This document shows, piece by piece, positions 12,201 through 42,969 of a DNA stretch of 64,000 nucleotides. Each line of letters begins with the position of its first letter. Within the stretch, counting starts at the first letter, position 1. Source of the stretch: an uncultured Verrucomicrobiota bacterium. Lineage in GTDB: Bacteria > Verrucomicrobiota > Kiritimatiellia > JAAZAB01. The notes beneath the pieces are model-generated. The model had not been told where the DNA came from. It saw only the letters and a program-made list of their open reading frames with translations, and made no database searches. The stretch lies in contig CAYUHK010000005.1 of assembly GCA_964444425.1 (NCBI GenBank), forward strand, positions 4,031 through 68,030, in the 5' to 3' direction. A program made the position numbers and the translations under genes.

Positions 12201-12395
12201 ATCGGGCAAACCGATTATCAAACCAATCCTCAAGACTTTTGGGAAGCTACTCGTATGTATCCCATTCCCTCAACAGCACTTAAATTTGGCGCGGAAAATG
12301 TGCTCGCGGTGATGGTTTGTGACAATAACGCCGGGGGCGGCTTTTCCGCTGGACCAGTACGGTTGATCGCTAAGCCTGAGCCTGGCAATCCATAA
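9207..12395 (+). CDS. Large secreted protein, paralog A of a three-member family; C-terminal GH2-N-like (galactose-binding-like) beta-sandwich; function unknown, putatively glycan-active
   Basis: A signal peptide starts at the MKKTVVIALALGLINLTGLS methionine (about 9252). The core shares ERCD..W..A.PYF, ELGDEAPP and GWQIGGP with 12513-15368. The C-terminal WYR..F.LP..F.G...F..GA.DD.D.VWINGIKIG..DYQTNPQDFWE matches the GH2 sugar-binding-domain pattern. Confidence 0.6.
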   Translation: MVCQATGYLIQEAIIMKKTVVIALALGLINLTGLSQDSEWAQAFKKASAKPWTNPVLPLTADPRQEPDLKAFIETDDMAVFSTPYFPGWMISCGQPTLTLFHKLPQIWRVAGPTHLAFSSNAKIEIFKAHEAIPAEKLAAMDKAWLLVWFAGARGWEKFDMPMLVVLQHRPLSIEFKDDLRLSFPQKAGLVTLLNLYGYYKPPQDNPSSRRWADIQQITEYGEIKEAKTANLNGAFGIQLGLLAPINVRPYQWSAGLPDHVHERCDYFTALCRAIPYFLRDSFQVDLKENALRLRNSFLYFITSDDWNTPAKKLAPVSPTFALGARYGLLLKFNGQLFDPIYPTPLGPWSGIADTDQYEVSVNLLKYLAETYVLELSQQTNDPIVKKAIETLTVTAPALCKSTAPWGNNQQAYAKRDMKLETGPGKVGNYGAIWVGLTSDRTKGYALRFVKPQDQAQARENMRNYFEYSCFTESGYKEEQHGNKTFLSRDNEDGLYGGCFGDSGKLIMNLLVPAWLYSYHGQDYEWIAPKAPIIEKLTCTLTMLGWPQAGRRCIAELGDEAPPAMGYARLMYAARDQARFAWGAYMTVMELLQAHLKCGPLGDYARKFQPWHRFEIMDDTENATDCWGAGYGWQIGGPGHAKIQPRLSRSFDVSAAKAFGSAQWISRWRCVHDFDFTRFLRENCLNTPGGLAFEFATEMQRDFKTLLEEAGQGRRYLELHPQAHNPANLLAKQRHFLGKSVAQINQQLNGWELSWNDVFKAAWAWEPTPWIHWALADNPKFERILDQDVLPWTPGLDSVYKADNIELLGATKLAIKDPVFEEFMPPFQFFGEWQSPAYPKGSGWSVGLVTVDPNRKIGAVTAENGFTRYIYTKIATPPEPYDLPLEGKQWKFCADNSAQGIKAGWFKREFNDSQWLNIEVPGLWENQAQLPEKALPLSALFPAEIHANNPPVENGGWYDGTAWYRIKFTLPEEFKGHNIFFHAGAIDDFDIVWINGIKIGQTDYQTNPQDFWEATRMYPIPSTALKFGAENVLAVMVCDNNAGGGFSAGPVRLIAKPEPGNP

Positions 12396-12512: not shown

Positions 12513-15368
12513 CTATTCCGGCTGGGCGGCGAATTGCAAGTCTGGCAACGGCTGATCATCCAACCCGGTGATACAGAACTGCATAGGGAATCCCTTGCTA
12601 CCAATCGGTGATTCGCTCTTGACCAGCAAGCGATTCCAGCCCTGCTGCAGACGGCCCAAGCCGCTAATGCGATTAGCATAGAAGCCGCCATGAGTAGTGT
12701 GCTCGCTAATCACACGTTGCTCATTGATCCAACCTTGTGCTCCCCCGCTATGCCCCACCTTGAGATAAACATCCTGGCTCTCGGGTGACCAGACATACTG
12801 TTGGACATAAGCGATCTTGCGCCCGGCTGGCCACTCGGCTGCGCCAGCCTGTTGCAGTAAGTCCAGCTGGCGGCCGGCGCCCAGCGTGGCCGGCTGCCAG
12901 GATACTTTTCTGCCGATGCCATCGTATTGTGCCTGCGGCTGAAAGTCCTCTTCAGGCGGGTAAGCCATCAGGATCTCCGAGTCCCAGCGATTGGAGAATG
13001 GGCCAATGAACAATATCGGCGTATTTTCCTGTGCCTGGATGACCTCCTCAAGATTGGCTATTTCGCGCTTAGACGTAGTATCCACCCATGATTGATAACA
13101 GCCATAAGAAAGCCGTTGTCTACCACAGGCGCCAGCGATCCGTTCGCCAAAATCACCGCTGATACTTCCGAAATTACGCTGGGGAGCCTGCTTGCCGCCT
13201 TGAGGATCCTTAGGCATATTCCAGCCATGCCAGAATGGCCGCATCTTGATATTAGCGCCGACACCTTGAACCAGCGACATATGTACCCCCTGCAAGCCTA
13301 GAACATAGGGGCTGGGCTCCATGGTTTTAGGCACCAAGCGGTCATACTGCACCGGGCCAATGGCGCGTAAATAAGCATAACTCACGGCGATTTTGCCCGG
13401 GCCAAAGCTTCTATTATAATTGGTCATAGGCAACAGCTGCGATAGTTCTTCAAAAGAATCACCGGCTAAAAACGAGCGTAGCCGCGCCAAGCTGGGCAAA
13501 ATATGCCCTTCATCCAAAGTAAGTCCATAGCGATAGTTGCCCGAGCGAACTATGGTATTGGTATACACATCTAGTTCGGCACGCACCTCTTTTAAGAGAT
13601 GATCTCGATAGAAACGGCCGGTATCAGGGTCGTGGAACCGTACCCAACGATTTTCACTCTGGCCCGGATTAGTAAGGAGCGGCCCACCAATTTGCCAGCC
13701 CACTGTGCTGCCCCATAAATCGGTGAGATAGACATTCTCAGCTAACGGCTTTAAATCCCTGTGGGGCTGACGCTCATAAAAGTATTCTGCACCAACCTGC
13801 TTAATGTAATGATGAATCAATTCCCGCGCAAAGGTATAACAGCCCAAGAGATAGGCATCGAGATCGCCTACACCCCAGCCCAGTCTTGCGTAAGCCGAGC
13901 AAGGAGGCGCTTCATCGCCCAGCTCCGCAATGGCAACGCGGCCAAAGCCGGTCCAATGCATTTCCTCGGGCGTACAAAACAGCCGTTTGATGATATCCCA
14001 ACGGTCGCGGATCAGGCCCCAGTCTCCACTATACTGAGCATAGGCCCAGACCGGTTGTAAAACATTACTGGCGAACTTACCGGAATCGCCCAGGCCGCCC
14101 CAGGATCCGATCCCGGGCCCATCCAAAATCAACTGGCCGTGCCAGGGCGTATAATTCCAGGCGTTGAGCACATCATTATCCATATAAATCCGCATGCTAT
14201 GCTTCACCGTTTCTTTACGCGGTTCCTCTAGAAACGGAATAGCCTTGGCATACCAGACATCCGCAACGATATTCCAACAGAAGTTGCCGCGCTGACCATG
14301 ATCGTATTGGCAGCGCCAGTCTTGCGAAAAACGCCCTACGGCGGCATTGATCCAATTCAGCGCTTGAGCTTGGTTCGCATCTGGATCCTCTGGCTTATCC
14401 ATCCGTTCCAACTCATTGATATATTGCAAAACCTGCATACTTATTTCCACCCGGTTCGTATCATAAGCTCCAACATATGGTCCGAACCCAGTGAAATACT
14501 CCGGATCATGAATTTCTGCCGAAAGTTGCATAGGGAATCCCGGAACTTTCCAAGCCAACCCCAGCGCGGGCGAGAGCGGCGCAAAGCGTAAGGGGGCCGT
14601 TTGCCAGTCATCCGCGGTAATCAGCCAGTCATAATCGTAACGAAAATTGATTTCGTCGGTTTGCGGATTAACCGCAAACGACTCCTGAAAGCCAACCGGA
14701 TAAGCCCGCGCTATCCGCGCCCACAGATCGCAACGCTCAATGACGCTGGCCGGCACGCTCTGCTTCCATTCCCATGGTCGGATGCCGGAACTTGGCAATT
14801 GATGCTCGGCACAAAAATCTTTCTGTTCCTGCGGCAATTTATGCCAGCCGTAGAGCGGCATGCTAAAAACATGGCCAGTGTCTGAATCGGCAAAGGTGAT
14901 CTTCAGTCCAGCCTGAGTAAGTTCAATTTGCAAAGGCCGTTTTTCCAAGGCGATAAACCAGGGCGCATCGAAATTTTCCCAGCCTTGCGCGCCTTGAAAA
15001 CTGACCACCACCCAGGCGGCCGCCAGCTGGGCGCCATCCAAGGGCTGGTTGGGCAACACAGCTTGAGTCCCGGCGGCGGTTTTAACGATAAAAAATGTTG
15101 GCCCTTGCGCGCCATAATCCTCAAGATCGCCGAAGAACTGAATCGTTGGGGATTGCATACGCAGCAGTACCCCGGGCGAAAGCATCGAGCTATACAGCAT
15201 AACATCATGCTGTTCCGGCGCGGCCAGCTGTGCCAGCGGATCCGGCAGAGCGCCAGCTAAGTTGGATAGAGTGCCCCAGCCTGAGCTGGCGATCCCGTCA
15301 GCATAACCGAGCGTCCCAGTGGCAACTACAGCTGCCAATAGATATGCAAGCATGAAATCTCTTTTCAT
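12513..15368 (-). CDS. Large secreted protein, paralog B of the same family; function unknown
   Basis: Signal peptide MKRDFMLAYLLAAVVATGTLGYADG. It shares the IERCDLWARIARAYPVGF, AIAELGDEAPPCSAYARLGW and VGWQIGGP blocks with paralog A. Confidence 0.6.
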   Translation of the reverse strand: MKRDFMLAYLLAAVVATGTLGYADGIASSGWGTLSNLAGALPDPLAQLAAPEQHDVMLYSSMLSPGVLLRMQSPTIQFFGDLEDYGAQGPTFFIVKTAAGTQAVLPNQPLDGAQLAAAWVVVSFQGAQGWENFDAPWFIALEKRPLQIELTQAGLKITFADSDTGHVFSMPLYGWHKLPQEQKDFCAEHQLPSSGIRPWEWKQSVPASVIERCDLWARIARAYPVGFQESFAVNPQTDEINFRYDYDWLITADDWQTAPLRFAPLSPALGLAWKVPGFPMQLSAEIHDPEYFTGFGPYVGAYDTNRVEISMQVLQYINELERMDKPEDPDANQAQALNWINAAVGRFSQDWRCQYDHGQRGNFCWNIVADVWYAKAIPFLEEPRKETVKHSMRIYMDNDVLNAWNYTPWHGQLILDGPGIGSWGGLGDSGKFASNVLQPVWAYAQYSGDWGLIRDRWDIIKRLFCTPEEMHWTGFGRVAIAELGDEAPPCSAYARLGWGVGDLDAYLLGCYTFARELIHHYIKQVGAEYFYERQPHRDLKPLAENVYLTDLWGSTVGWQIGGPLLTNPGQSENRWVRFHDPDTGRFYRDHLLKEVRAELDVYTNTIVRSGNYRYGLTLDEGHILPSLARLRSFLAGDSFEELSQLLPMTNYNRSFGPGKIAVSYAYLRAIGPVQYDRLVPKTMEPSPYVLGLQGVHMSLVQGVGANIKMRPFWHGWNMPKDPQGGKQAPQRNFGSISGDFGERIAGACGRQRLSYGCYQSWVDTTSKREIANLEEVIQAQENTPILFIGPFSNRWDSEILMAYPPEEDFQPQAQYDGIGRKVSWQPATLGAGRQLDLLQQAGAAEWPAGRKIAYVQQYVWSPESQDVYLKVGHSGGAQGWINEQRVISEHTTHGGFYANRISGLGRLQQGWNRLLVKSESPIGSKGFPMQFCITGLDDQPLPDLQFAAQPE

Positions 15369-15802: not shown

Positions 15803-15825
15803 ATCCTGAGCTCCTTTTAAAAATC

Positions 15826-15842: not shown

Positions 15843-15994
15843 ATTGATTGCGCCGGATTCACTGCCATTAAAAAAATATTAAGCACCAGTGTATTCGCCA
15901 GCTGGGGAAAGGCAAACAAACAATAAAATTTTTTAATAAGAGGGATAAAAATCTTTACAAGCAGACTCTCTTGCTATAGCCTGCCTCGTAAACT

Positions 15995-18900
15995 ATGTAC
16001 CCCTTACCAACAATTTTAGGCTGCCAGGCCTTTAATGAAAGGTTCCGACTTATGCTTCGCCATTATAGATTCTGCTGGGTTATTGCAACGCTGATGATGG
16101 CTGCTTTTACGGCGGCAGCCGGGGAAGCCATTGCGCCGGATTTTAGCGCGGGCGAACCGAAATTTCCTCAAGCGGTCTACGGTTATCAGTACTCAAGCAC
16201 GGCACCGTGCGTATATCGGAGCCTTTTTAATGCCACCCCAGAAACAGAATGTGTCGCACTGCGTTTACAGACAACCGGGCCAGTGGTGGTCCGCGTGAAT
16301 GGGCGGCTGGTTTACGAGCATACGCCCGATCAAAAAGCCAAGTCAGGACCGGATGCTCCGGCCGAGATTCGCGACGTTGTTTTCGCCGAATGGATTCGGC
16401 CAGGCCAGAATGTTTTAGCCATAAGCGCCGCTATCAAGGGCTTGGCGTTGGAGGGCGCTATCATTGATCGAGCCGGCACCATCCAGCGTCTAAGTAGCAG
16501 CACCCAATGGCAAGTAAAAAAGTTCCCACCTTGGAGCTTTTTGCAACATGAGCAGGCCTTGCTCGACCCCGCCGCGGATATATCCGATTGGGTTCCCGTA
16601 AAAAATAGCGCTGACGCCGCATTGACGATCAGCGACCAAGAGCTCCAGACCTTGGCGGCGCCGGCCATTAAAGCGCTGCGCGCCGAGCTCGCGCGCAACC
16701 TGACTTGGCGGCTGAACTTAATTGTTCAGCGCGGTTGTATCATCGATGATTGGGAGCCATTTTATTTTGGGGATGCCAGTCGTTTGCCCGACGAAGCACT
16801 GCGCGTTACAACGGGCTTGCGGGAGAGCTTGCAAAAAATCATGGCTCAGCCGGAAATATCTCCTGCCATTCATAGCCTGGCTGATGGCACAGAGGCTTTA
16901 ACGCTGGCCATACGCCTGCTGGATGAGGCCGAGTGCCTGGCCAATACGGCGGAAGCTCTGCAGCGTAAGAATCCAATGGGCGCCAAGGCGGCCCAAGAGG
17001 CTACAGGCCAGTTTCAGGCCCTGGGCAAGCAAGCCATGACAGCGCTCTTGGCCGGCAACTATACGCAAGCACGGCAAATCTTAGCCGGTTCTCGTGAGCA
17101 GATCGACAGCGTGTTTAACACAGTGGAGGGCTCTTGGAAGAATGTCGTCAATCGGCTCAATCAATCCGATGCTAATCGCTTTGGTTGGTGCGACATAACC
17201 CATCTGCTCGACAATGACATCAACCGTTGGGGCTTGCGCATCGGGGCAACGGAGATCTCTTGGAAAATGAATTTGAACGGCTTATGGCGGTTTAAACTGG
17301 ATCCGCCGAATACGGGTCTTCAGGAGACGTATCATGATCCAGCCTATAATGTTCTATGGTCTGAAATCGTCGTGCCGGGAGATTGGGAACATCAGGGCTT
17401 TCAAGACCTGAATCCTGACATCAAGAAGACCAACCCCTTCCCAGGCATCAACGATAAGCTAGAGGACGCTCCTTATAATGGCTGGGCCTGGTATCGGCGG
17501 ACTCTGCATATTCCGCAGGAATGGGCTGGCTACGATCTTGAGCTTGGCATCGGCCGTGTAGATGATTACGACTGGGCTTATTTTAACGGCCAGGAAATAG
17601 GCCATACCGCCTACGACACTAATCCTCAAGATTTTTGGGCTGTTGAACGAAAATATAAAATCCCTAAAAAACTGGTTAAGTTCGGCGGCCTTAATTTGAT
17701 CGCTGTTCGCGTATATGACTGTCGCGATAAAGGCGGCATTATGGGCGATGTAGAGATTCGCTGCCCCGCTTTACAGGCCGCATATGAACAACGCCCCCCT
17801 AGTCAAACGCAAGCCGCCACTATCTGGAACAGCCCGCTTTCCGTTGGCGCGCTGGTAACAGCGGGCGAGGATCCGCTGCAGCTATGGGGTTGGAATGAAC
17901 GTGGCGTGCCAGGGCCTCAAGCAATCGCCTGGCCTGGCCAAGATGCTTTGGAATATAAACCCCTCACCAAAACCGCTACGCTATATGATGCGCAAACCGA
18001 TGGAGATCTGCCGGAGAACTGGGCCTTGCTCTGGCCCGCCGCGACGGTCGTCGAACAACCGATCTTGATGGTTTTTCTTGATAAGCCGCAAACCATTGCG
18101 GCGAACGTAGGCGAGGAAGGCACCTCCCAGATCAGCTGCACCTTCGGCAAGAAGGCGGCCCAAGTCGTATTGGCGCGCCCTTTCCGCGCAGAACTGAATT
18201 TTGGCGAGACGATTCCCACGCAGATCGTTGAGCGTTGTCGCTTCTGGTCCCAAGCCTTACTGGCCTATCCGATAGCCTTCACGGAGATTAATGAGCGCAG
18301 CGCCAATGAGCCTGAGATGCTCGATATAACCGATATCTATACCTATAAAATATTGAAGGACGCTTGGAATACCAAGCCGCTCAAAGTTGCTTTGCTGCCG
18401 CCTTTTTTCAGCTATGCCGTTGAGCAAAAGTTTCCAGGTTTAGCCTTCCCTAGCAACGCGCAAACTCTGGGATGCTCTCTGGGCAAGTATGGAACGCTGA
18501 AAGGCGTTCTCGACAGCGACCGAGTCAGCTACCGGGTGCCGCTTGATGAGATACCGGCTTTTGGTGGTATGACCGCTTTTGCCTTTTCACCTGTTGATAT
18601 CGGTGCTGGGAATGTCGCGGAGGTACGCGATGTAGCCCTCTGTGGCGGCAACAGTTGGCGCCCACAAACAGCTGTAGGACCAGGCCCTCAACTGCAGTTT
18701 TGCTTGGATGCCGGGCAAGAACTCGGTGTCAATATCCTGCACAATACTTCAGCTGACCATGCCGGTGGAGATCATAAGATTCCGGCGTTATACGAAAGCC
18801 TGGCCCAGGCCTATCACGACCTGCCCTTTGCGGCGATCTCCTATGATCCGTTTAACGAGCCGGCTGGCCTACGCGCCGAAGCCTATAACCCACTGGTCCG

Positions 18901-19399
18901 GCAAACTATCGCGGCTATCCGTAAACATGACCGGCGCCATTTGATCTATATTGAGTCGCCGGAAAGCTTTGCCTCGGTTATGATGCTCAATAAAATCGAG
19001 CCGATGGATGACCCTCTGCTGGTTTACAGCTTTCATGATTACGACTATCGGCTCTATGAATTTTGGCCGAATGGTCTTTACTCAATCCGCACGGTATTGG
19101 AAGGCTGGTTCAAGGCCTTTGAGCTCATGGTTGAGCGCCACGCGCGAATACATATCGGCGAGTGGGGTGGTTACGAACAGCGCCCTGAAAAATGGGTTTT
19201 TACGCGGCCGCATACCATTGCCCAAACGCTTGATATGTGCCGCATCTTCCAGCACTTCAATATACATTTCCATTACTATTCCAATCGCGGCATCACCCGA
19301 CAGGCCGCTGACGGGGCCGCGGAACAAAGCTATGTGCAGGAAGGGTTTCGGCGCTTCTTTGCCCGCGGGCACTGGAATTATTATCAAAAACAAAAATAA
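15995..19399 (+). CDS. Large secreted multi-domain glycoside hydrolase, paralog C: GH2-N-like beta-sandwich (middle), family core, C-terminal GH5 catalytic module
   Basis: The likely start is the MLRHYRFCWVIATLMMAAFTAAAG methionine (about 16052). The core block IVERCRFWSQALLAYPIAF is homologous to paralogs A and B. A GH2-N-like WAWYRRTLHIPQEW...NPQDFWAVE...NLIAVRVYD lies at about 17.3-17.8 kb. The GH5 hallmarks are NEP (Glu codon 18857-18859) and IGEWGG (Glu codon 19160-19162), with FHDYDY between them. Confidence 0.7.
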   Translation: MYPLPTILGCQAFNERFRLMLRHYRFCWVIATLMMAAFTAAAGEAIAPDFSAGEPKFPQAVYGYQYSSTAPCVYRSLFNATPETECVALRLQTTGPVVVRVNGRLVYEHTPDQKAKSGPDAPAEIRDVVFAEWIRPGQNVLAISAAIKGLALEGAIIDRAGTIQRLSSSTQWQVKKFPPWSFLQHEQALLDPAADISDWVPVKNSADAALTISDQELQTLAAPAIKALRAELARNLTWRLNLIVQRGCIIDDWEPFYFGDASRLPDEALRVTTGLRESLQKIMAQPEISPAIHSLADGTEALTLAIRLLDEAECLANTAEALQRKNPMGAKAAQEATGQFQALGKQAMTALLAGNYTQARQILAGSREQIDSVFNTVEGSWKNVVNRLNQSDANRFGWCDITHLLDNDINRWGLRIGATEISWKMNLNGLWRFKLDPPNTGLQETYHDPAYNVLWSEIVVPGDWEHQGFQDLNPDIKKTNPFPGINDKLEDAPYNGWAWYRRTLHIPQEWAGYDLELGIGRVDDYDWAYFNGQEIGHTAYDTNPQDFWAVERKYKIPKKLVKFGGLNLIAVRVYDCRDKGGIMGDVEIRCPALQAAYEQRPPSQTQAATIWNSPLSVGALVTAGEDPLQLWGWNERGVPGPQAIAWPGQDALEYKPLTKTATLYDAQTDGDLPENWALLWPAATVVEQPILMVFLDKPQTIAANVGEEGTSQISCTFGKKAAQVVLARPFRAELNFGETIPTQIVERCRFWSQALLAYPIAFTEINERSANEPEMLDITDIYTYKILKDAWNTKPLKVALLPPFFSYAVEQKFPGLAFPSNAQTLGCSLGKYGTLKGVLDSDRVSYRVPLDEIPAFGGMTAFAFSPVDIGAGNVAEVRDVALCGGNSWRPQTAVGPGPQLQFCLDAGQELGVNILHNTSADHAGGDHKIPALYESLAQAYHDLPFAAISYDPFNEPAGLRAEAYNPLVRQTIAAIRKHDRRHLIYIESPESFASVMMLNKIEPMDDPLLVYSFHDYDYRLYEFWPNGLYSIRTVLEGWFKAFELMVERHARIHIGEWGGYEQRPEKWVFTRPHTIAQTLDMCRIFQHFNIHFHYYSNRGITRQAADGAAEQSYVQEGFRRFFARGHWNYYQKQK

Positions 19400-32700: not shown

Positions 32701-34941
32701 TTAGGATTTATGAGCTGGGCAAACCCTAAGACATTCTTCGGCTATATTAAGATGGCGCTTCTGTATGCCCCATTCAACGCTGGCCACGGCATCGGCTATG
32801 GCCGCGGCGGTTTGTTCTTTGGGCAGAGGCACATTTACATCAAGGCCCATGTAGGCCGGGCCTTCCTCGCCAACCAAGCAATATTTCTTAGCCCAGTCGC
32901 ATGCATAGCCGTTAAACGAACCTAGTTCCAAGTCGTGATCGGGCATTTTAACAACGGCGAACTCGTTCTTAAGAGCTTGGGTGGGGCAAGCCTTAACACA
33001 GGGCCTGGCGCAATCACGGCAAATATTAGGTCCATTATAAAATGGATCATCCTGCACTGGATAATCGGTCACAATGGCAATAAAGCGCTGACGCACGCCA
33101 TAGGCGCTGGTCAGCGGATAGCCGTTCACTCCACAATAAGCTAATCCAGCCAGCATAGCCGCGTGTAAATTAGCGCGCATATCCAGCCGCCGGCCGCGAG
33201 AGCTATAGACTTCCGAGGCCAAGCCAGTAAGATCATGCGTCAGCACGGCGCGCGCGCCTGAGCGTTCCAGGCGCTTGATCACTTTGACGGCAATATCGTT
33301 GAGCAAATTCATTGTTTCAAAGTAAACAAATGCGAAGGGCCCTATAGATTCCGCTGGGTTAACCTTAGCGGTATCTAACGCCGCGTCTGGAAAATGCAAC
33401 CCCAAGACGATCACAGAACGGGCGCCAGTCAGCCAATCTTCCAACCCTTTCAACCTAGGTTTAGAGGTATGTATCTCGGGATAAAAGGCACCATAAATCC
33501 AATTGCTATCAACAACATTATGAGTGTTTTCTGGTAATTTAATGGCCTGGTGGAACGCCTGCTTAAATTGTTCTAGGCGTTTCCCGCTAAAACAGCCAAT
33601 CAAGTCGGCTCCAGCATCCTTACAAAAGGCTTGCAGCTCTTGTTGCGACATTACCGGCTGAGCCGGCGCTTTAACAACATGTGGCTTTAAGACGGCACTG
33701 GTTAAAACCGTTGCAAATAGCATGTTCGGCTGATAGACGCCCAAGACTCGGGCAACGGGATTATCTGCAATGCGCGTATGTGAAACAGCGGCATAGCCAG
33801 CAATATCCAAGAAATGCGCCATTTCCCAGGCGGCAAAGGCGAGGCTACGCCAGCGCCCGTAATGATCTTCGCCATTAATACCAGGCGTCTCCGGCAGCCG
33901 TAAGCCCAGCGAGATGATCGTGGCCACGTCCGGCAGATGATATTCTGGGTGAGGCTGATTCTTGCCGGCAAAGTCTGCTAGCTGCCCCACAGCCAATAGA
34001 TCAAGAGAGTATTTAGCGCTGATCGCGTGCAGCTCGCGCATTAGCTCTTCCGGGGTTAGGCTGACCTTATCTTTTTTACGGCGAGGTGAAGCAGAATAAG
34101 CCGGATCCTCCAGACGCCGGCCCGGCGACATACAGAATTTCAGGCAGTATCCCTCTTCACCGCCACGAATCCCATATTTTTCCAGATAGCGCAAAGCGGT
34201 GGCTTCATCCACCTTATCTGGAATAGCATGGTCTAGACTAAGTGCAAAGTTCTCGGCCCATGAGCAGCGCCACTTATTGATATCCGGAAATTCAAAAACC
34301 CGGCCACCGATTTCCAACTTATTGATTTTGGTCACTTCCTTACGAAAGGCATCTGTAGGGCAATGCTTGACACAAGCCATACATTTATCGCATAGCGGCG
34401 CGCCAGCGTACATGGGCGAAGCGGTTAGATCGGCGTTGGTTACCACTGAAACAAACCGGGCCCGGGGCCCAAAATCTTCCGTCAAGGCGAGTCCATTCCA
34501 GCCGATCTCACCTAAGCCGGCCGCAACAGCAGCATAACGATGGGCCATGTCAGGAGCAAAATCAACCGGGCAATCCTTATAGGCATGATAACGCCAGATA
34601 TTGCTGGATACGATGGGGAGCGCCTGAAACCCCTTGGCTTCTAGAAATCTAGCCATCCAGAATGATAGATCATCCAGCCGTGGATTCATAACGCTGCCCT
34701 GGGTGCCATAAGCGCCCTGGTCGTGTGGTGAAGGGTCGCCTCCCAATTCCACCGCTGCATCATGGTGGTGCAGCGCCATCACTACTACGGATTTAGCACC
34801 AGGCAAAAGTTCTTGTGGGCTCATTTTGAGCGGAGCACCTTTAAAGCGTTCAATGGGCGCCACGCCCACTAAATCGGCGCCAAGCTGCTTGGCTTTGGCC
34901 AGAACTTCTACAGTTAATTGCGAAACGTTAGTTGATTGCAT
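32701..34941 (-). CDS. Tandem fusion of two epoxyqueuosine-reductase-like (QueG/RdhA-superfamily) Fe-S modules
   Basis: Each ~370-aa half has the QueG-type block (AAGLGEIGWNGLALTEDFG...CDKCMACVKHCPTDAF and LAGLAYCGVNGYPLTSAYG...CRDCARPCVKACPTQAL). Each half also has a second Cys cluster (CSW...YCLKFC and CDWAKKYC...CLRVCP). Confidence 0.6.
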   Translation of the reverse strand: MQSTNVSQLTVEVLAKAKQLGADLVGVAPIERFKGAPLKMSPQELLPGAKSVVVMALHHHDAAVELGGDPSPHDQGAYGTQGSVMNPRLDDLSFWMARFLEAKGFQALPIVSSNIWRYHAYKDCPVDFAPDMAHRYAAVAAGLGEIGWNGLALTEDFGPRARFVSVVTNADLTASPMYAGAPLCDKCMACVKHCPTDAFRKEVTKINKLEIGGRVFEFPDINKWRCSWAENFALSLDHAIPDKVDEATALRYLEKYGIRGGEEGYCLKFCMSPGRRLEDPAYSASPRRKKDKVSLTPEELMRELHAISAKYSLDLLAVGQLADFAGKNQPHPEYHLPDVATIISLGLRLPETPGINGEDHYGRWRSLAFAAWEMAHFLDIAGYAAVSHTRIADNPVARVLGVYQPNMLFATVLTSAVLKPHVVKAPAQPVMSQQELQAFCKDAGADLIGCFSGKRLEQFKQAFHQAIKLPENTHNVVDSNWIYGAFYPEIHTSKPRLKGLEDWLTGARSVIVLGLHFPDAALDTAKVNPAESIGPFAFVYFETMNLLNDIAVKVIKRLERSGARAVLTHDLTGLASEVYSSRGRRLDMRANLHAAMLAGLAYCGVNGYPLTSAYGVRQRFIAIVTDYPVQDDPFYNGPNICRDCARPCVKACPTQALKNEFAVVKMPDHDLELGSFNGYACDWAKKYCLVGEEGPAYMGLDVNVPLPKEQTAAAIADAVASVEWGIQKRHLNIAEECLRVCPAHKS

Positions 34942-34989
34942 GCCAAGGTTTCCTTTCTACTGATTATAGAATTAGACCATATCCAATCG

Positions 34990-35757
34990 TTATTCGCCGC
35001 TGAGCTGTTGGCGCAGTTGCCGACAGCTTGCCTGCATAGCGGCCAATATTTTTTTTCTATGGAGACCTTTAAAACGGAAGGCCGGTAGATACAAGCCCAG
35101 CGCCGCAACCACTTTAGGCGTTTGCTGAGAGCGCAGGCCCCCCGCGTAAACAGGCATGGCAATGCCGAGAGTGTCACTGCCTGATGCAATATGAATCAAT
35201 TGGGCCTGACGCCGAATTTGATGCAGTTGCTCCTGCAGGCCCGCCAGCGTAGCCGCTTCCGGCCAAGCGCTGCTCGGCAAGCCATACTGACGAATAAAGG
35301 CGGCCAGCTCGTCTTCGTCCAGATAAGCCAATAACAGTCGGCCGCTGGGCATCTGGTAAACATCCTCGCGCAATAGATAATCGGGACGCAGCTGCAGGAT
35401 TTGATCGCCGCTGGCATGGCATAAAATGGTGCGGCGAAAATCCTGCAAAACCACTAATAATACATTTTCGCCAGTCTGCCGCGCTAGACGCATCACCAGG
35501 GGTTTGGCCAGATTCAAAAGACGATGCTGGCTCAGGCCCTGCTGAGCTAGATAAATCAGGCGCGAGCCGAGCCGGTAGCCTTTTTTGGGCGCAATTTGCT
35601 CAACGTAATGGCGGCCTACCATGGTTTTCAGGATGTTGGCGCAGGTGGCCAGATGAATTTTATGCTGACCGGCGATCTCGCTTAAAGATCGCGGCTGATC
35701 CGGCGTGGCCGCCAGAAATTCAATAATATCAAAGGCCTTATGTAAAACCTTAATCAT
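34990..35757 (-). CDS. IclR-family transcriptional regulator
   Basis: N-terminal wHTH KAFDIIEFLAATPDQPRSLSEIAGQHKIHLATCANILKTMV and a C-terminal IclR effector domain. It lies 48 nt upstream of the QueG-like gene on the same strand. Confidence 0.85.
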   Translation of the reverse strand: MIKVLHKAFDIIEFLAATPDQPRSLSEIAGQHKIHLATCANILKTMVGRHYVEQIAPKKGYRLGSRLIYLAQQGLSQHRLLNLAKPLVMRLARQTGENVLLVVLQDFRRTILCHASGDQILQLRPDYLLREDVYQMPSGRLLLAYLDEDELAAFIRQYGLPSSAWPEAATLAGLQEQLHQIRRQAQLIHIASGSDTLGIAMPVYAGGLRSQQTPKVVAALGLYLPAFRFKGLHRKKILAAMQASCRQLRQQLSGE

Positions 35758-35774: not shown

Positions 35775-35797
35775 TTAAGGCGCACTCTAAGCCTTAA
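35775..35797. promoter_or_regulatory. Inverted repeat TTAAGGC-N9-GCCTTAA in the IclR upstream region; candidate operator
   Basis: Seen directly at 35775-35797, 18-40 nt upstream of the IclR start codon (35757, minus strand), within an AT-rich stretch. Confidence 0.3.
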
Positions 35798-35952
35798 ATA
35801 TTAATTTGTCAATATAAAATTATATTTTATATTTTAATAATAACCACTAGCGTCAGGGGAGGGGCGAAAGGTCAGCTATAGAAAGGATGCGTCCAGATAG
35901 TGCTGTAATTGATGGCGAGAGGCAGGCCAGCATTAGCATGAACAGCAGCGCT

Positions 35953-37023
35953 TCATGCAGGCAGCGATGCTGCCAATAGCCGCAACAGTCCGGCGGCCAG
36001 CAAGGCCGTTATAGGCAAGGTTAAAATCCAAGCCCAGATGATTTTTTTAACCACCTCCCATTTCACGGCCTTGCCTTGTTTGACCATGCCAACCCCCACA
36101 ATAGAAGTCGAAATGACATGTGTTGTCGAGAGAGGCATGCCCCAATGGCTAGCCAACTGAATTATGGCCGCAGCGGTGGTCTGGGCAGCAAAACCATGAA
36201 CGGGCTGCAAACGGACCAGCTTATGGCCCAAGGTACGGATAATACGCCAGCCTCCGGCCGCCGTGCCAGCAGCCATGGTCAAGGCGCAAAGGATTTTAAT
36301 CCAGAGGGCGACCTTAAACACGGGCGTATATAAAAAATGTATCCCAACTGGTAGGTTATCGAAGGAACCAGCTTGCGTAGCCGTGAATAGGATCAGGGCC
36401 AGTATGCCCATGGTTTTCTGGGCGTCATTAGTACCATGGCTAAATCCCATCCAAGCGGCGCTGAGTATCTGTATTTTCCCAAAAACGCGATTAATAAGGC
36501 GGGGTGTTAATTTTTGTAACAGGCTTTGCAGCAGCCCCATCAAGATCAAGCCGCCCACTATTCCCAGCAACGGCGCGATAAACATCGGCAGCACTACCTT
36601 GGGTAAAATGCCCTCCATCTGCCCAGTGCCAGCATTGATTACGAACCAGCGGACCGCTTGAAAACAGCCTTGGGCTTGGGCCAGGGCTGCGCCACATAGC
36701 CCGCCGATCAAAGCATGGCTGGAGCTAGAGGGCAGTCCTAGCCACCAGGTCAGCAGGTTCCACAAGATGGCGCTCAACAATCCGCAGAAAATCACAGGCG
36801 GTGTAATGTATTGAGTTTCGATAAGCCCCCGACCAATGGTTGTTGCCACGGCCACTCCTATCAAGGCGCCCGTCAAGTTGCCGGCCGATGCCAGGAGAAT
36901 CGCCTGGCGCGGGGTCAAGACCTTGGTGGAAACGGAAGTAGCAATAACATTGGCAGCGTCATGGAAGCCGTTGATATACTCAAAGAGCAGCGCAACGAGG
37001 GCAATAACGATAGCGAATAACAT
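35953..37023 (-). CDS. Inorganic phosphate transporter, PiT family
   Basis: GFHDAANVIATSV and GFSHGTNDAQKTMG signature repeats in a multi-TM protein. It pairs with the upstream DUF47 gene. Confidence 0.85.
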   Translation of the reverse strand: MLFAIVIALVALLFEYINGFHDAANVIATSVSTKVLTPRQAILLASAGNLTGALIGVAVATTIGRGLIETQYITPPVIFCGLLSAILWNLLTWWLGLPSSSSHALIGGLCGAALAQAQGCFQAVRWFVINAGTGQMEGILPKVVLPMFIAPLLGIVGGLILMGLLQSLLQKLTPRLINRVFGKIQILSAAWMGFSHGTNDAQKTMGILALILFTATQAGSFDNLPVGIHFLYTPVFKVALWIKILCALTMAAGTAAGGWRIIRTLGHKLVRLQPVHGFAAQTTAAAIIQLASHWGMPLSTTHVISTSIVGVGMVKQGKAVKWEVVKKIIWAWILTLPITALLAAGLLRLLAASLPA

Positions 37024-37037
37024 AGCACGGCACGCAA

Positions 37038-37709
37038 CTAGGAGTATTTAAGCACGACCTGGAAAATAACATTACTAGCATCTCGACAACGATCTATGGC
37101 CTGTTCCAATGTTTCATAAAGATCCATGATCACAACCACTTTCAAGGGTTCGTATTTCCCGCTATAAAGATCCTTGATCAGTGTAAACAATAGTTTATCG
37201 GCCTCGTTTTCCATATCATGCAGTGCATGATTGGCTTTTTGAATCTTATGTAAGGAAGGTCGCTCACGCAGCATTTTAATCATAAGAGCGATGGTGGACA
37301 TAGCCCTAGACAAGATATCGACTTGTTGAAAAAAATTGATATCTAGAAGAAAATGGCGGCAGATAAGATATTTTTCGCTAAATTTTTCTATAGTTTTAGG
37401 CACCTTATAAAGCGCCACCGACAAGGTTTCGATATCTTCGCGCTCCAGCGGAGTGACAAAGGTTTTACATAATTGTTCCATCACTTCTTCAACAATGCGC
37501 TTGTTCTGACGACGCGCCTGGACGATCTCATCCAATATTTCGGCCGCATCGTTTTCCTGCAATATATTCTTGAGCGATTGAACGCTGTTTTGGGCTTCGA
37601 GCGCGCTGGCCTCCAGCAGGTCATAGAACTTATCGTCGTAGCCTAGAAGTTTTTTTATTACGTGTTTCATAGTGAGCAGAAATGTTATTCCAGCAGCGGC
37701 GAAAAACAA
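37038..37709 (-). CDS. DUF47/TIGR00153 (PhoU-like) phosphate-transport regulator
   Basis: 223-aa all-helical protein immediately upstream of PiT on the same strand, the conserved pairing. Confidence 0.7.
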   Translation of the reverse strand: MFFAAAGITFLLTMKHVIKKLLGYDDKFYDLLEASALEAQNSVQSLKNILQENDAAEILDEIVQARRQNKRIVEEVMEQLCKTFVTPLEREDIETLSVALYKVPKTIEKFSEKYLICRHFLLDINFFQQVDILSRAMSTIALMIKMLRERPSLHKIQKANHALHDMENEADKLLFTLIKDLYSGKYEPLKVVVIMDLYETLEQAIDRCRDASNVIFQVVLKYS

Positions 37710-37815
37710 GCAGATTTTTAGCCTGATTTTATATCCACGCCATAGAGCCCAGCACGCTTATGGCCAAATTGACGCTCCTCCAAGCAGGGGATCTGCGGCC
37801 ACAACCGTCTATGGA

Positions 37816-39318
37816 TTATCTAAAAAAAATAAAGGTCTGCATAATAAAAATTGGGATCAGAATCGCGCTTGACCAAAGCATATACCCGCCAAAGGACGGC
37901 ATCTTAATACGCGCATGCTCGGCCATGGCCTTAACCATAAAATTGGGCCCATTGCCAATGTAGGTATAGGCGCCGAAAAAGACGGTGCCGCAGGAAATCG
38001 CCGCTAACAACGCAGGAAAACGCTCGGCCAGCAGATCAAGGTGCATTGGCGCTAAGTGATTTTGGCTGGCGGCAAGCGTGACATAGGCAAGATAGGTTGG
38101 TGCGTTATCCAAAAAACCGCTCAAACTGCCGCTGGCCCAGAAAAAACGCCACGGCTCATGCCAAGCCCAAAGTTGGCTTTTGGCTTCCAATAAAGATAAG
38201 GCCGGGATCATAGCGCCGAAAATTCCAAAAAATAAAATCGCTACCTCTAGAATGGGTGCGAAGGAAAACCCATTGGCGCGGCGGTAATGCTCGGATGTCA
38301 TTCGGTAAGAGCATAAAGCTAATAGGCTCATACCGATGATCTGAAATACTTTGGATCCTATCTCGGCCCCAGCGACGCTGCCTAACTGCATTAAGCCTGG
38401 GCGAACGATTCTGCTGGCCAGCAGCACCCCCATGATTGCCAGTAGCAAGAAAACATTGCGCCACCCCTGAATACGAAAGTTTTCCAAGCGCTTGGCCGGC
38501 AAAGCTGCTCTGGTCTGCTCGGTCATGCCGGTTAACACGGAGCGCCGCACCAATCGCCGATCCAGCAGATAGAACAACAATAATAACATGCTGTTGGTCA
38601 ACAGCCATTGCGGCCATAGCCGCAGAGTCCAACTAAAGGGAACCCCACGCAGAAACCCAAGATAAAGGGGCGGATCGCCCAAAGGGGTTAACAAGCCGCC
38701 GCAATTACAAACAATAAAGATGAAGAAAATGACGATATGCGCCGCGGATTTACGCCGAGCGTTGGCGCGCAACAAGGGGCGGATCAAAACCATGCTGGCG
38801 CCGGTGGTTCCCAGAAAATTGGCCAGAACAGCGCCTAGGGCTAAGAAGCCAGTATTGGCGGCCGGCGATCCAGACCATGCCCCGCTGACATGAATCCCTC
38901 CGGAAATAACAAACAGGGCACTCAGCATAACTAGAAAGGCCGCATATTCCAGGTAAACCGCCCATATTTTAGTCAAGTCGGCCGTAGGAATGAGATATAG
39001 AAACATCCCGGCTAAGGCGCAAATCAAAGCGACTTTTAATTTATTACGATGTTGTTCCCACCAGGCCCCCGTTATGGACAACAGCGGCAGAATGGCTATA
39101 CAGAGCAACAGGGCCACCAAAGGTAAGAGGTAGAAGGCCCCTAGCCCCATGCCAACATTTTGCCAATAAGTCGATAGGTCCATAGGGGGTGTTTCATTTC
39201 CGGTGGCTTGGCCCAGATCTTGACAAATGATCAGGTGGTGGGCGCCGGATAAACTGTCGATATTTGATACCAGCTTCTTTAAATAGGGCGGTAACCTGGC
39301 GGCTACGAGGATAGTCAT
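37816..39318 (-). CDS. Polytopic membrane transporter (ArsB/NhaD-type ion-transporter-superfamily-like); family uncertain
   Basis: Many TM helices in two repeated halves. The likely true start is the MDLSTYWQNVGMGLG methionine (about 39183), which removes most of the overlap with the deaminase gene. Confidence 0.45.
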   Translation of the reverse strand: MTILVAARLPPYLKKLVSNIDSLSGAHHLIICQDLGQATGNETPPMDLSTYWQNVGMGLGAFYLLPLVALLLCIAILPLLSITGAWWEQHRNKLKVALICALAGMFLYLIPTADLTKIWAVYLEYAAFLVMLSALFVISGGIHVSGAWSGSPAANTGFLALGAVLANFLGTTGASMVLIRPLLRANARRKSAAHIVIFFIFIVCNCGGLLTPLGDPPLYLGFLRGVPFSWTLRLWPQWLLTNSMLLLLFYLLDRRLVRRSVLTGMTEQTRAALPAKRLENFRIQGWRNVFLLLAIMGVLLASRIVRPGLMQLGSVAGAEIGSKVFQIIGMSLLALCSYRMTSEHYRRANGFSFAPILEVAILFFGIFGAMIPALSLLEAKSQLWAWHEPWRFFWASGSLSGFLDNAPTYLAYVTLAASQNHLAPMHLDLLAERFPALLAAISCGTVFFGAYTYIGNGPNFMVKAMAEHARIKMPSFGGYMLWSSAILIPIFIMQTFIFFR

Positions 39319-40227: not shown

Positions 40228-40270
40228 ATGGGTATAACCTTACGATTATCTTAATGCTAAGCAGATGCGA

Positions 40271-41365
40271 TTAAGTAATCCTTAAAGGCATAAGGACATA
40301 TAAGAAGGGGATGTCGCATTTAACGATAGCCGGGCTTAATTCATCCACTAATTCTATCTTAACCTCATCGCTGGTTAAGTTGCGGAGTGGAGCCATTAAG
40401 AATTCTGGGTTAAAAGCCATAGCAATGGACTTACCAGTATATTTAATAGGCACTGATTCTTGGGCTTCGCCGACATCTGGAGTGACTGCTGAAACATGTA
40501 TTTGATTTTTATTAAATGATACTTTCACCGACGGATACTGTTCATTAGTTATTAACGCTACACGCTTCAGGGCAATCAATAAACTCTCCCGATCCACGCT
40601 AACGCGCTCCTCGCACTGAGTGGGAATGACCTGTCGAAAATTAGGATAGTTGCCATCAATAAGCTTAGAAATTAACGTTATTGTCCCGGTATCGAACAGC
40701 ACCAAATTAGGCAAGATTTTAATCTTTAAGATATCTTCATCTTTAAGGGTTCTAATCAATTCATTCACAGCTTTAGTGGGAATAATGATGTCCGTTTGAG
40801 CATCTCCCGGAATTTCCATTTCCTGCTCTACCATGGCTAAACGGCGGCCATCTGTAGCGACCATGGTTAATTTTTGGTCTTTAAAACTTAAAAAAGTTCC
40901 GCTTAGCACCTGACGACTCTCATCTGTGGAAGCAGCATAAATGGTTTTTTTCAACATTTCCTTAAAAGTTGCTTGTGGCATAGAAAAAGAATGCGCTGTT
41001 TCAAAAGGTGGTAGAGGAGGAAATTCATCCGCCGAAATGCCCAGCACTTTATAGGAAGATGATCCGCAATGGATTGCTGCCGTATCTTTATCGTCTATAT
41101 CTATTTCAATATTCTCATTTGGCAATTCACGGATGATGTCGTGTAGACGCCGCGCATGAAATGTGCTAGCACAACTTTTAGAAGCATCTATAGCCAGGTC
41201 ATATTTTATGCTAATGGATAGATCGGTGGTAACAAGCGAAAGGGTTCCTTTTTCAATTCTTAAAAGAACGTTATAAAGAATGGGTAAAGTTGTGCGGGTG
41301 CTAATGACAGGCAAAACAGCTTGCAGTCCCTTTAGGAGAGGCTCTTTTGAAATAGTAAATTTCAT
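40271..41365 (-). CDS. dnaN: DNA polymerase III beta sliding clamp
   Basis: MKFTISKEPLLKGLQAVLPVISTRTTLPILYNVLL N-terminus and a three-domain length. It is directly downstream of dnaA and is visibly AT-richer than the flanking genes. Confidence 0.9.
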   Translation of the reverse strand: MKFTISKEPLLKGLQAVLPVISTRTTLPILYNVLLRIEKGTLSLVTTDLSISIKYDLAIDASKSCASTFHARRLHDIIRELPNENIEIDIDDKDTAAIHCGSSSYKVLGISADEFPPLPPFETAHSFSMPQATFKEMLKKTIYAASTDESRQVLSGTFLSFKDQKLTMVATDGRRLAMVEQEMEIPGDAQTDIIIPTKAVNELIRTLKDEDILKIKILPNLVLFDTGTITLISKLIDGNYPNFRQVIPTQCEERVSVDRESLLIALKRVALITNEQYPSVKVSFNKNQIHVSAVTPDVGEAQESVPIKYTGKSIAMAFNPEFLMAPLRNLTSDEVKIELVDELSPAIVKCDIPFLYVLMPLRIT

Positions 41366-41583: not shown

Positions 41584-42969
41584 TTATCTCGCGGGAGATG
41601 TGGCTGCATTATTACCAATCTGTTTGGAAAGCTTGATAATGCTTTGTTTAACTTGTTGATCCTGCTTGATTTTCTGGTTGATACAGCGGCAGGCATGCAT
41701 AACAGTGGCATGTGTTTTTCCAAAGGCCCGTCCGATTTCGGGCAATGAAGCAGTTGTTAGCGAACGACATAGATACATAGCTATTTGACGTGGCAAGGCC
41801 ACCCCCCGCGAGCGATATTTACTGGTCATGTCGGCCATGCGAATATCGAAATAATCCGCTACCCCACGTTGGATCATATTGATGGAAACCGGCTCTTTCT
41901 TTTCCTGTTCAATAATGTTTTGAAGCAAAGACTCAGCTAGCTCCGTTGACATGGTTTTTTGGTAAATGGCTGTATAGGAGGTTAATTGCAATAGAGCTCC
42001 CTCCAGAGAACGGATGTTAGAGCAAATATGCGTGGCCACAAAAGTTAAGACGTCCTCTGGCAGCAGCACCTTAAGGGTTTTTTGTTTAGAGCGCAGAATG
42101 GCCATGCGCGTTTCAAAATCTGGAGGCAATAGTTCAGTTACTAAGCCCCATTCAAAACGTGTAACCAAACGTTTTTCTAAACCGGCTATTTCGCCAGCCG
42201 GCCGGTCGCTCGTCATCACGATTTGCTTATGGGCATCATTGAGCACGTTGAATGTATTAAAAAATTCTTCCTGCAGAGCGCTGGTTTTGGCTAGAAAGTG
42301 AATATCATCAATCAATAAAAGATGAGCGCTGCGATATTTATCTCGAAACTGTTTAACGCGTCGATTTTGTAGGGAATCTATATATTCATTCATTAAGGTT
42401 TCGCAGGAAAGATAATGAACACGGGATTTAGACTGGGTGAGCGCATAATGGCCGATGGCCTGCATTAAATGGGTTTTGCCTAACCCTACTCCGCCATAAA
42501 TAAAGAGTGGATTATAGGCTTTGCCGGGCGCTTGGGCAACCGCTAGGGACGAGGCATGGGCAAAGCTATTGGCAGGGCCAACCACAAATGAATCGAAGAC
42601 ATATTTAGGATTGAGCCGAATCTCGGCCTTAGCTCCGCCGCCACGAATCTTTTTAGAACGATCCGGCCGGCGGGTCATCGGTTGCTCATCGACTGGTGTT
42701 GGCGCGTCCATGGCGCCGGCCGGCGTCACTTCAAATTGCACTTGTAGCTCGTGGCCATGTGCGCGCCCGACCGCTTCTTTGATGAGCGCCAAATAATTCT
42801 CTTCCAGCCAGGTTTGATAAAAATCACAACTGACCGATAGAATCAATTTCTCGCCATCGAATTGTTTGGGGTTGATTACGGCGATCCATCGAGCATAAAC
42901 ATCGGGATTCAATTGTCCTTGTAAATGTTGGCAGGCTTGATGCCAAAGCGTTTCAACCTGTGTTGTCAA
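41584..42969 (-). CDS. dnaA: Chromosomal replication initiator protein DnaA
   Basis: N-terminal domain I, AAA+ Walker A GGVGLGKTHLMQAIG, Walker B LLLIDDIHFL and the C-terminal DNA-binding domain EIGRAFGKTHATVMHACR. Confidence 0.95.
   Translation of the reverse strand: MTTQVETLWHQACQHLQGQLNPDVYARWIAVINPKQFDGEKLILSVSCDFYQTWLEENYLALIKEAVGRAHGHELQVQFEVTPAGAMDAPTPVDEQPMTRRPDRSKKIRGGGAKAEIRLNPKYVFDSFVVGPANSFAHASSLAVAQAPGKAYNPLFIYGGVGLGKTHLMQAIGHYALTQSKSRVHYLSCETLMNEYIDSLQNRRVKQFRDKYRSAHLLLIDDIHFLAKTSALQEEFFNTFNVLNDAHKQIVMTSDRPAGEIAGLEKRLVTRFEWGLVTELLPPDFETRMAILRSKQKTLKVLLPEDVLTFVATHICSNIRSLEGALLQLTSYTAIYQKTMSTELAESLLQNIIEQEKKEPVSINMIQRGVADYFDIRMADMTSKYRSRGVALPRQIAMYLCRSLTTASLPEIGRAFGKTHATVMHACRCINQKIKQDQQVKQSIIKLSKQIGNNAATSPAR

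Follow-up and report, generated by a model that had tools for sequence, protein, structure and literature searches.

A three-core Fe-S protein of the RdhA/QueG superfamily encoded next to an IclR-family regulator in an uncultured Kiritimatiellia bacterium

In a 64,000-nucleotide stretch of DNA from an uncultured Verrucomicrobiota bacterium of the Kiritimatiellia (assembly GCA_964444425.1, contig CAYUHK010000005.1, positions 4,031 to 68,030 of the forward strand; the whole stretch is called the window here), a gene for an IclR-family transcriptional regulator is followed on the same strand by a gene for a 746-residue iron-sulfur (Fe-S) protein. This protein contains three copies of the core domain of class-III B12/Fe-S enzymes, the fold of reductive dehalogenases (RdhA) and of epoxyqueuosine reductase (QueG), together with two ferredoxin domains. 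The two genes probably form an autoregulated operon, with the second encoding a soluble, cytoplasmic reductase from an uncharacterised Fe-S/corrinoid clade of class III. To our knowledge, class-III enzymes carry out two known types of reaction, the reduction of organohalides and that of epoxyqueuosine. The fold and the redox-chain logic of the protein are already known; the fusion of three cores and two ferredoxin domains, a signature of seven cysteines and dedicated control by IclR or AraC are new. A published account of a three-core fused family was not found in the searchable literature, part of the searching being loosely worded.

Three cores in one chain

The gene and its domains are as follows.

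32701..34941, minus strand: open reading frame of the 746-residue three-core RdhA/QueG-like Fe-S protein, stop codon included
34417..34941, minus strand: core 1, residues 1-175; alpha/beta core of the class-III "cobalamin-binding" type, the most conserved part
34066..34416, minus strand: ferredoxin domain 1, residues 176-292; C184xxC187xxC190xxxC194P, C226 and C266xxxC270
33658..34056, minus strand: core 2, residues 296-428; vestigial or degenerate duplicate of the core, without a ferredoxin domain
33046..33657, minus strand: core 3, residues 429-632; second full core, with GLAYCGVNG and R617/R619
32704..33045, minus strand: ferredoxin domain 3, residues 633-746; C641xxC644xxxC648xxxC652P, C681, C688 and C737xxxC741P

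The two halves of the protein are homologous: residues 43-234 and 501-689 share 30% identity (BLASTP, E = 2e-21). An alignment of 50 homologous sequences was cut into segments, which were compared profile against profile with hhalign. Module 1 (core 1 with its ferredoxin domain) matches module 3 with E = 3.5e-67, core 1 matches core 3 with E = 1e-47, and the two ferredoxin domains match each other with E = 4e-26. Core 2 is matched by core 3 (E = 8e-22), and because core 1 also matches residues 296-428 (probability 99.5%, E = 5e-23), the layout is core plus ferredoxin domain, core only, core plus ferredoxin domain. An original prediction, made from the letters of the sequence, had described a tandem fusion of two QueG/RdhA-like units behind an IclR regulator. 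The reading frames of 746 and 255 residues lie exactly where it had placed them, both on the minus strand, and the tandem duplication is real with respect to two core-plus-ferredoxin modules, but the third, degenerate core had been overlooked.

No stop codon or frameshift occurs between the halves of the open reading frame. A sequence search of 5.8 billion proteins retrieved 371 relatives; among the 120 matches listed, most have 737-819 residues, with a query coverage of 97-100% and identities of 37-72%. They carry the source names "hypothetical protein" or "epoxyqueuosine reductase" (QueG; IMG, Prokka). The search for the same fusion in other genomes, proposed with the original prediction, was carried out as a scan of one genome per species and found a relative in at least 337 genomes, all metagenome-assembled genomes (MAGs) of uncultured anaerobes. 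The hosts belong to the Verrucomicrobiota, Planctomycetota, Kiritimatiellia, Omnitrophota, Ratteibacteria, TA06 and WS1, as well as to the Armatimonadota and Limnochordia, and include numerous gut Oscillospiraceae and Faecousia. With hundreds of independent full-length homologs, an assembly or frameshift artefact as the source of the fusion is ruled out. The family is nevertheless rare, since an HMMER scan of all 1.84 billion cluster representatives gave 2099 matches at E ≤ 1e-3 and just 156 at E ≤ 1e-30.

An AlphaFold2 model of the protein, made from the 50-sequence alignment, is compact and of high confidence (pLDDT 93.4, pTM 0.94). Its significant Foldseek matches in the PDB are exclusively class-III B12 enzymes: the catabolic type of NpRdhA, JtRdhA and BhbA (PDB 4RAS, 6ZXX) comes first, with NpRdhA at E = 3e-11 over more than 700 columns, and the others are PceA (9e-9), QueG (2e-8) and the reductive dehalogenase (RDH) complex 8Q4H. 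The next matches, a nitroreductase and CblC/MMACHC, come at E of about 0.01. The class-III layout, an alpha/beta core followed by a 2x[4Fe-4S]-type ferredoxin domain, occurs twice in the chain, and a core-only copy is present in addition. Pfam gives weak ferredoxin-type matches (best Fer4_16, 1.6e-7), with QueG_DUF1730 below threshold. The Kyte-Doolittle (KD) hydrophobicity maximum, KD(19), is 1.26, and the protein contains no hydrophobic segment and no twin-arginine translocation (TAT) motif; the core begins right at the N-terminus. In the absence of both features the enzyme can be taken to be soluble and cytoplasmic.

Conservation is unevenly distributed over the chain. In the 50-sequence alignment, 37 columns are invariant in module 1, compared with 15 in module 3 and 2 in core 2. 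The residues noted in core 1 are H58, H59, D61, E65, Y78, Q81, N86, N114, W116, R117, Y118, Y121, K122, FAPD128-131, H134, R160 and R162. At one related locus (L084, 83-7006), a naive call yields an open reading frame of 2307 residues across the fusion gene. This larger fusion is most likely an open-frame artefact; the upstream 1542 residues have no Pfam match, and the DNA has a GC content of ~69%.

The regulator and related loci

The regulator gene and the signals around it are listed below.

34990..35757, minus strand: iclR, 255-residue IclR-family transcriptional regulator, from Pfam and upstream synteny
34942..34989, minus strand: spacer of 48 nucleotides between the iclR stop codon and the ATG of the enzyme gene; ribosome-binding site AAAGGA at 34956..34951, TATAAT at 34963..34968
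35807..35812, minus strand: -35 hexamer TTGACA of a sigma-70-like promoter upstream of iclR, from a consensus scan
35784..35789, minus strand: -10 hexamer TAGAGT, from a consensus scan; TAGAGT, TAGGGT or TAGATT in orthologous loci
35811..35833, no strand: perfect 10-nucleotide inverted repeat AATATAAAAT-ATA-ATTTTATATT, 100% complementary, abutting or overlapping the -35 hexamer; candidate IclR operator
35775..35797, no strand: second inverted repeat TTAAGGC-N9-GCCTTAA across the -10 region; putative regulatory role

The family assignment of the regulator agrees with the original prediction: its protein matches HTH_IclR (PF09339, 1.5e-5, residues 5-54) and IclR_C (PF01614, 3.1e-15, residues 73-248). 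It stays under the cutoffs of all named NCBIfam subfamilies (e.g. 65 of 285 bits for PcaR and 48 of 275 for KdgR). A terminator scan of the spacer between iclR and the enzyme gene found none. The TATAAT within the spacer is perfect and has no good -35 hexamer at normal spacing; it could be a weak internal promoter for basal expression of the enzyme.

Upstream of iclR, TTGACA and TAGAGT at a distance of 17 nucleotides give 10 of 12 consensus matches. The exact 12-mer TTTATATTGACA is found 60-72 nucleotides upstream of the IclR start in the window and in four related loci (L005, L013, L014, L017), while three further loci have variants of it, with a flanking block, including the -10 hexamer, that aligns. 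Any exact 12-mer match was obtained in just 0.2% of shuffles. A similar palindrome together with TTGACA is kept in Verrucomicrobiota and Kiritimatiellota loci. We infer that IclR may bind the palindrome at 35811-35833, and the conserved operator-like site, taken together with the synteny described below, suggests that the enzyme is inducible, as had been proposed.

Adjacency of the regulator was counted after gene starts had been corrected by alignment, for 29 testable loci of the close clade and 43 distant loci. The enzyme gene is immediately preceded by a co-oriented IclR gene in 21 of the 29 close-clade loci and in 6 of the 43 distant ones. In 22 distant loci, mostly from gut Clostridia, a divergent gene of the AraC family (HTH_AraC with or without a cupin domain) is found instead. 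Identity between IclR proteins tracks identity between the enzymes (Spearman 0.84, n = 29), a correlation to which shared host phylogeny contributes. This co-divergence fits long-term co-inheritance of the two genes and, with the co-directional adjacency, bears out the dedicated regulator of the original prediction. The window and the locus of a 72%-identical Verrucomicrobiota homolog have only iclR and the enzyme gene in common, and in other phyla the pair is still found with homologs of only 39% identity. In two loci (L006, L007), the two genes overlap start to stop.

Many close-clade loci have the fused gene at the head of a cluster of single-module paralogs of 281-354 residues. These are unfused, usually paired (~300 plus ~350 residues) and absent from the window. 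They are 27-37% identical to module 1, share the GLGEIGY-FGPRQR block with it, also match residues 303-406 in the core 2 region, and score 26-48 bits with the RDH model, staying under the RDH and QueG cutoffs. Often the same clusters also encode a ~340-residue peptidase U32-like protein (PF01136, 15-18 bits) and a ~500-residue flavin adenine dinucleotide (FAD) oxidoreductase. Such clusters may represent a multi-enzyme anaerobic pathway built from the class-III fold. Three to five paralogs downstream of the fused gene, along with the U32-like protein and the FAD oxidoreductase, were seen in L024, L032, L033, L039, L007/L027 and L025. In the 80 loci compared, the recurrent neighbours besides regulators and paralogs are the U32-like protein (12), the FAD oxidoreductase (7) and GFO/IDH/MocA proteins (6), none of which is found in the window. 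There and in most distant-clade loci, the fused gene stands alone with its regulator, without partner enzymes. In L009, a second IclR gene followed by two single-module paralogs (13247-16006) lies 3 kb from the IclR-fusion pair; the same locus has a NiCo riboswitch (3791-3878), not related to the fused gene, before a P-type ATPase gene.

Relationship to reductive dehalogenases and QueG

The protein scores 59.9 bits with the RDH model TIGR02486 (cutoff 160.35) and 58.0 bits with the QueG model TIGR00276 (E = 7.5e-16, cutoff 200). Both models are matched by all 50 family members, none of which reaches either cutoff, and the RDH match is always the stronger one. The best member has E = 5.1e-40 (~139 bits, converted from E) for RDH and E = 3.1e-26 (~92 bits, likewise converted) for QueG. 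Because both models are matched below their cutoffs, the protein is a member of the superfamily yet outside both named families. The original label "QueG/RdhA-like" holds in that this is an Fe-S enzyme of the superfamily, but the protein is closer to RdhA than to QueG in both sequence and fold.

The best PDB sequence matches are the PceA entries 4uqu and 8q4h, the latter with E = 3.9e-9 when the single sequence is used and 6e-18 when the profile is. Over AAGLGEIGWNG...FGPRAR162...C184xxCxxCxxxCP the protein aligns without gaps to PceA and NpRdhA, and the part shared with PceA (PDB 4UQU, 8Q4H) is the block AGLGE.G.NG....FGPR.R plus CxxCxxCxxxCP. Active sites of RdhAs consist of Tyr246/Asn272/Arg305 in PceA and Y426/K488/R552 in NpRdhA (PMC10463259), where R305 and K488 are the basic partners of the catalytic Tyr (PMC4646009, PMC10463259). 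FGPRAR162 and YGVRQR619 of our protein align without gaps to FGPNVR305 of PceA and GPRSK488 of NpRdhA, so that R162 and R619 both correspond to this basic residue, which QueG does not have. All 50 members have R162, and 48 of them have R619. Columns 536 and 541 of module 3 are Tyr in 38 and 33 of the 50 sequences, respectively, and the window protein alone has Phe at both (nucleotides ~33319-33336), which hints that its second full module may be catalytically silent.

These similarities raise the question whether the protein could be a catabolic, cytosolic organohalide reductive dehalogenase, a divergent NpRdhA/BhbA-type enzyme that frees the carbon skeleton of natural organohalides. RdhAs are its best matches in fold and sequence, the basic residue equivalent to R305/K488 is invariant, and IclR or MarR regulators often adjoin cytosolic rdhA-like genes (PMC12219181), as do regulator genes NpRdhA-type genes. 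With the NpRdhA type it shares a cytoplasmic location without a TAT signal, the class-III core with a 2x[4Fe-4S]-type ferredoxin domain and a vestigial core within the chain; catabolic RdhAs carry such a vestigial core duplicate, which imitates the PceA dimer interface (PMC10463259). However, NpRdhA combines a single active module with one vestigial core at the N-terminus, whereas here two full Fe-S modules flank a central vestigial core, identity to the NpRdhA type is ~13%, module 1 has 7 instead of 8 Cys, and a fused reductase domain is lacking. Unlike PceA, the protein has no TAT signal, no RdhB anchor gene and no N-terminal extension of ~140 residues; PceA is a homodimer, while this protein would be a monomeric pseudo-oligomer by fusion. 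No rdhB gene is adjacent; the gene neighbours are iclR and a convergent SDR epimerase gene. The protein and even the best family member stay below the RDH cutoff, and the Tyr partner is not confirmed by the alignments. Across related loci, the neighbours are glycoside hydrolases and sugar-type transporters and not genes of aromatic or halo-acid catabolism, and the family is common in ruminant and human gut Clostridia, which have no evident organohalide niche. We therefore regard dehalogenation of this type as unlikely.

The cysteines differ from the class-III pattern. The original prediction had given each unit a GLG-x-IG-x-NG block, a CxxCxxCxxxCP motif and a second Cys cluster. In the N-terminal half the first two are exact (GLGEIGWNG at 142; C184xxC187xxC190xxxC194P), but the C-terminal half has GLAYCGVNG and, with an insertion of one residue, C641xxC644xxxC648xxxC652P. 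Cysteines of a second cluster are present in both halves but do not form the canonical C...CxxCxxxCP (C226...C266xxxC270 in the N-terminal half; C681, C688...C737xxxC741P in the C-terminal half). In QueG, C184/187/190/243 ligate the distal cluster and C194/210/236/239 the corrin-proximal one (PMC4646009, PMC5175355). Over the 50 sequences, module 1 has 7 invariant Cys compared with 8 in the pattern CxxCxxCxxxCP...C...CxxCxxxCP. Where QueG has C236, the sequences have Glu or Met at the corresponding position 263 and never Cys (0 of 50), and E262 (41 of 50) is the sole conserved candidate for a substitute ligand in this module. Its cluster may be a [3Fe-4S] cluster, Glu-ligated or of the open-iron type. 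Module 3 likewise has 7 invariant Cys, with an eighth in 39 of 50 sequences at the mutually exclusive positions 688, 732 or 734 (C688 in the window protein), which suggests that a fourth cluster ligand may be kept there. The single-module paralogs have the 7-Cys pattern C..C..C...C / C / C...C as well.

Since the missing Cys belongs to the corrin-proximal cluster of module 1, some doubt falls on corrinoid binding. The chemistry could instead take place at the three-Cys [4Fe-4S] cluster of module 1 of a corrinoid-independent Fe-S enzyme, its unique iron binding the substrate as in IspH, IspG and dehydratases. The equivalent of C236 is missing from the single-module paralogs too, there is no linkage to B12 riboswitches or uptake genes, and a vestigial core unable to bind B12 has precedent in this fold family. 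On the other hand, no block of the protein is more conserved than the core around GLGEIG/FGPRxR, which in PceA and QueG lies against the corrin, and the fold matches are holo-B12 enzymes. Seven-Cys patterns are also seen in some genuine corrinoid RdhAs, among them CprA, for which one [3Fe-4S] cluster is reported. The three-Cys proximal cluster keeps a corrinoid-free mechanism open, but we rate it as improbable, and from the modelled fold and the conserved corrin-facing block corrinoid dependence of the enzyme is likely.

A non-catalytic role, in which the protein is a polyferredoxin-like electron carrier or a redox sensor feeding other enzymes (e.g. the single-module paralogs), would make use of up to four Fe-S clusters per chain and of its place at the head of clusters with paralogs, U32-like protein and FAD oxidoreductase in related loci. 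Core 1, however, is dense in invariant polar and aromatic residues that are not ligands, as is typical of a substrate pocket, and partner enzymes are missing from the window and from most distant-clade loci; such a role is thus very improbable.

Similarity to QueG (PDB 5D08, 5D6S) comprises the core-plus-ferredoxin fold, a GLG..GKN-like loop and the first Cys motif. QueG consists of a cobalamin-binding core, a ferredoxin domain and, at the C-terminus, a tRNA-binding domain of the HEAT-like type; its catalytic residues are an Asp and the Tyr of a D-Y-H motif (PMC4646009, PMC5175355). The tRNA-binding domain has six helices and corresponds to L257-L385 in B. subtilis QueG (PMC5175355). In the profile-to-PDB alignment with QueG, residues 428-655 around core 3 are covered. 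The hhalign comparison with E. coli QueG matched only QueG residues 8-211 (probability 94-96% over the core), and neither hhalign nor the AlphaFold2 model provides a counterpart of QueG 211-379, which includes the HEAT-like domain, in either module. Core 2 begins ~25 residues past C270 and module 3 stops 5 residues past C741; the modules thus end 5-25 residues after the last Cys and have no counterpart of the HEAT-like domain. The string DYH does not occur in either module; the motif aligns with a gap in module 1 and with F541-E542 in module 3, alignment confidence being low there. The position of the catalytic Asp (Sth D130 / Bsu D134), which falls before F128-A129-P130 in an alignment of low confidence, is variable, with D in 14, H in 12 and S in 10 of the 50 sequences. 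A search of the rest of the window found no canonical queG or partner modules; only the fusion gene was matched.

In agreement with the original prediction, which had set the protein apart from the housekeeping tRNA enzyme, a bona fide duplicated QueG acting on tRNA, as annotated by IMG and Prokka and as the weak QueG_DUF1730, TIGR00276 and hhalign matches might suggest, can practically be dismissed, given scores far below the cutoff even for the best member, the missing HEAT-like domain and DYH motif, the variable Asp position, dedicated IclR/AraC regulators, clusters with several paralogs and a distribution that is rare and patchy.

Proposed mechanism and genomic surroundings

For the reductase operon that we favour, the following sequence of events can be envisaged. 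IclR, bound to the palindrome overlapping the -35 hexamer, would keep the operon repressed and be released by a small-molecule effector, either the substrate or a metabolite related to it. Low-potential electrons would enter via surface Fe-S clusters and pass along a chain of up to four clusters. At the active site of module 1, a small polar metabolite would then undergo a reductive elimination with two electrons, carried out by a base-off corrinoid; some versions of the mechanism also involve the unusual three-Cys cluster beside the corrinoid. Protonation might be aided by a conserved basic and Tyr-rich pocket (R162, K122, Y78/Y118/Y121, H58/H59). By analogy with NpRdhA, the vestigial core 2 could act as an internal pseudo-dimer partner, and module 3 would mainly be an electron relay or an auxiliary site. 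Module 1 is taken as the catalytic site because it is the most conserved one, and module 3 as relay or auxiliary site because it is less conserved and has Phe at both Tyr columns in the window protein.

The dense invariant His, Arg, Lys, Tyr and Trp residues of module 1 point to a polar, probably anionic substrate, and regulation by IclR or AraC points to a small molecule rather than tRNA. Of the candidates named in the original prediction, a modified tRNA nucleoside is unlikely, and organohalides or epoxides are possible. The gene neighbourhoods weakly suggest a metabolite from the breakdown of complex glycans. The neighbours in related loci are variable, and many are linked to glycan use: GH29, GH20 (twice), GH89, GH123, CBM9, a sulfatase-like protein, GFO/IDH/MocA proteins, an FGGY kinase and SSF, MFS and SBP transporters; the window itself encodes giant GH2/GH5-like proteins. 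We tentatively consider a third functional class of class-III enzymes, with a three-core, four-cluster architecture and, in the catalytic module, an open or non-Cys-ligated corrin-proximal iron, for a reduction other than dehalogenation or tRNA epoxide reduction. In anaerobes, for example, a metabolite derived from glycans might be reductively dehydroxylated or have its ring opened.

Several observations weigh against the regulated corrinoid reductase proposed here. In class-III enzymes, a base-off corrinoid sits between the core and the ferredoxin domain. The class has no cobalamin sequence motif (PMC4646009), so the sequence does not demonstrate a corrinoid in the 746-residue protein, and the corrin-proximal cluster of module 1 has only three conserved Cys. 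The window yielded no cobalamin riboswitch, and a single one turned up among 16 related loci (L056, 470-673, minus strand, 106.6 bits), ~7 kb from the fusion gene and on the opposite strand. Candidates for the catalytic Tyr (PceA Y246/NpRdhA Y426/QueG Y101) are Y78 (50 of 50), Y118 and Y121 in module 1 as well as columns 536 and 541 in module 3, and HMMER and hhalign disagree on them. Catalysis is placed in module 1 by conservation alone, and both modules could be active. As no pathway partner is constant, the substrate class is but weakly indicated. Finally, an adjacent IclR or AraC gene is absent in 26 of the 72 loci with enough upstream sequence.

More class-III families have been predicted, which are hard to spot without a cobalamin motif (Payne et al., PMC4646009). 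The locus provides a cloneable candidate for such a family: the protein is predicted to be soluble and no membrane anchor is needed, and its own ligand-sensing regulator with an operator-like site offers a route to the substrate via the IclR effector. The family is at present named "hypothetical" or, wrongly, "QueG" in databases, and the latter name leads to inflated predictions of queuosine and B12 dependence for MAGs of PVC (Planctomycetes-Verrucomicrobia-Chlamydiae) bacteria, candidate phyla and gut Clostridia. That gene duplication can internalise dimer interfaces of the class-III fold was a finding from NpRdhA, which the fusion of three cores takes further.

Elsewhere in the window, two giant proteins of more than 1000 residues with GH2 sugar-binding and GH5-like domains are encoded at 9207..12395 and 15995..19399 (both plus strand). 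The 951-residue open reading frame between them (12513..15368, minus strand) has no Pfam match. Directly upstream of iclR, positions 35953..39318 (minus strand) encode a PhoU_div-like protein and transporters of the PHO4 (phosphate) and CitMHS_2 types; these genes are probably unrelated to the operon, as this neighbourhood is not conserved in homologous loci. The genes dnaN and dnaA lie at 40271..41365 and 41584..42969, respectively (both minus strand). GC content falls to 0.41-0.46 in positions 40000-44000 of the window, and the cumulative GC skew has its minimum near 40 kb, beside these two genes. This looks like a chromosomal replication origin ~5 kb from the operon, with the window being part of the core chromosome.

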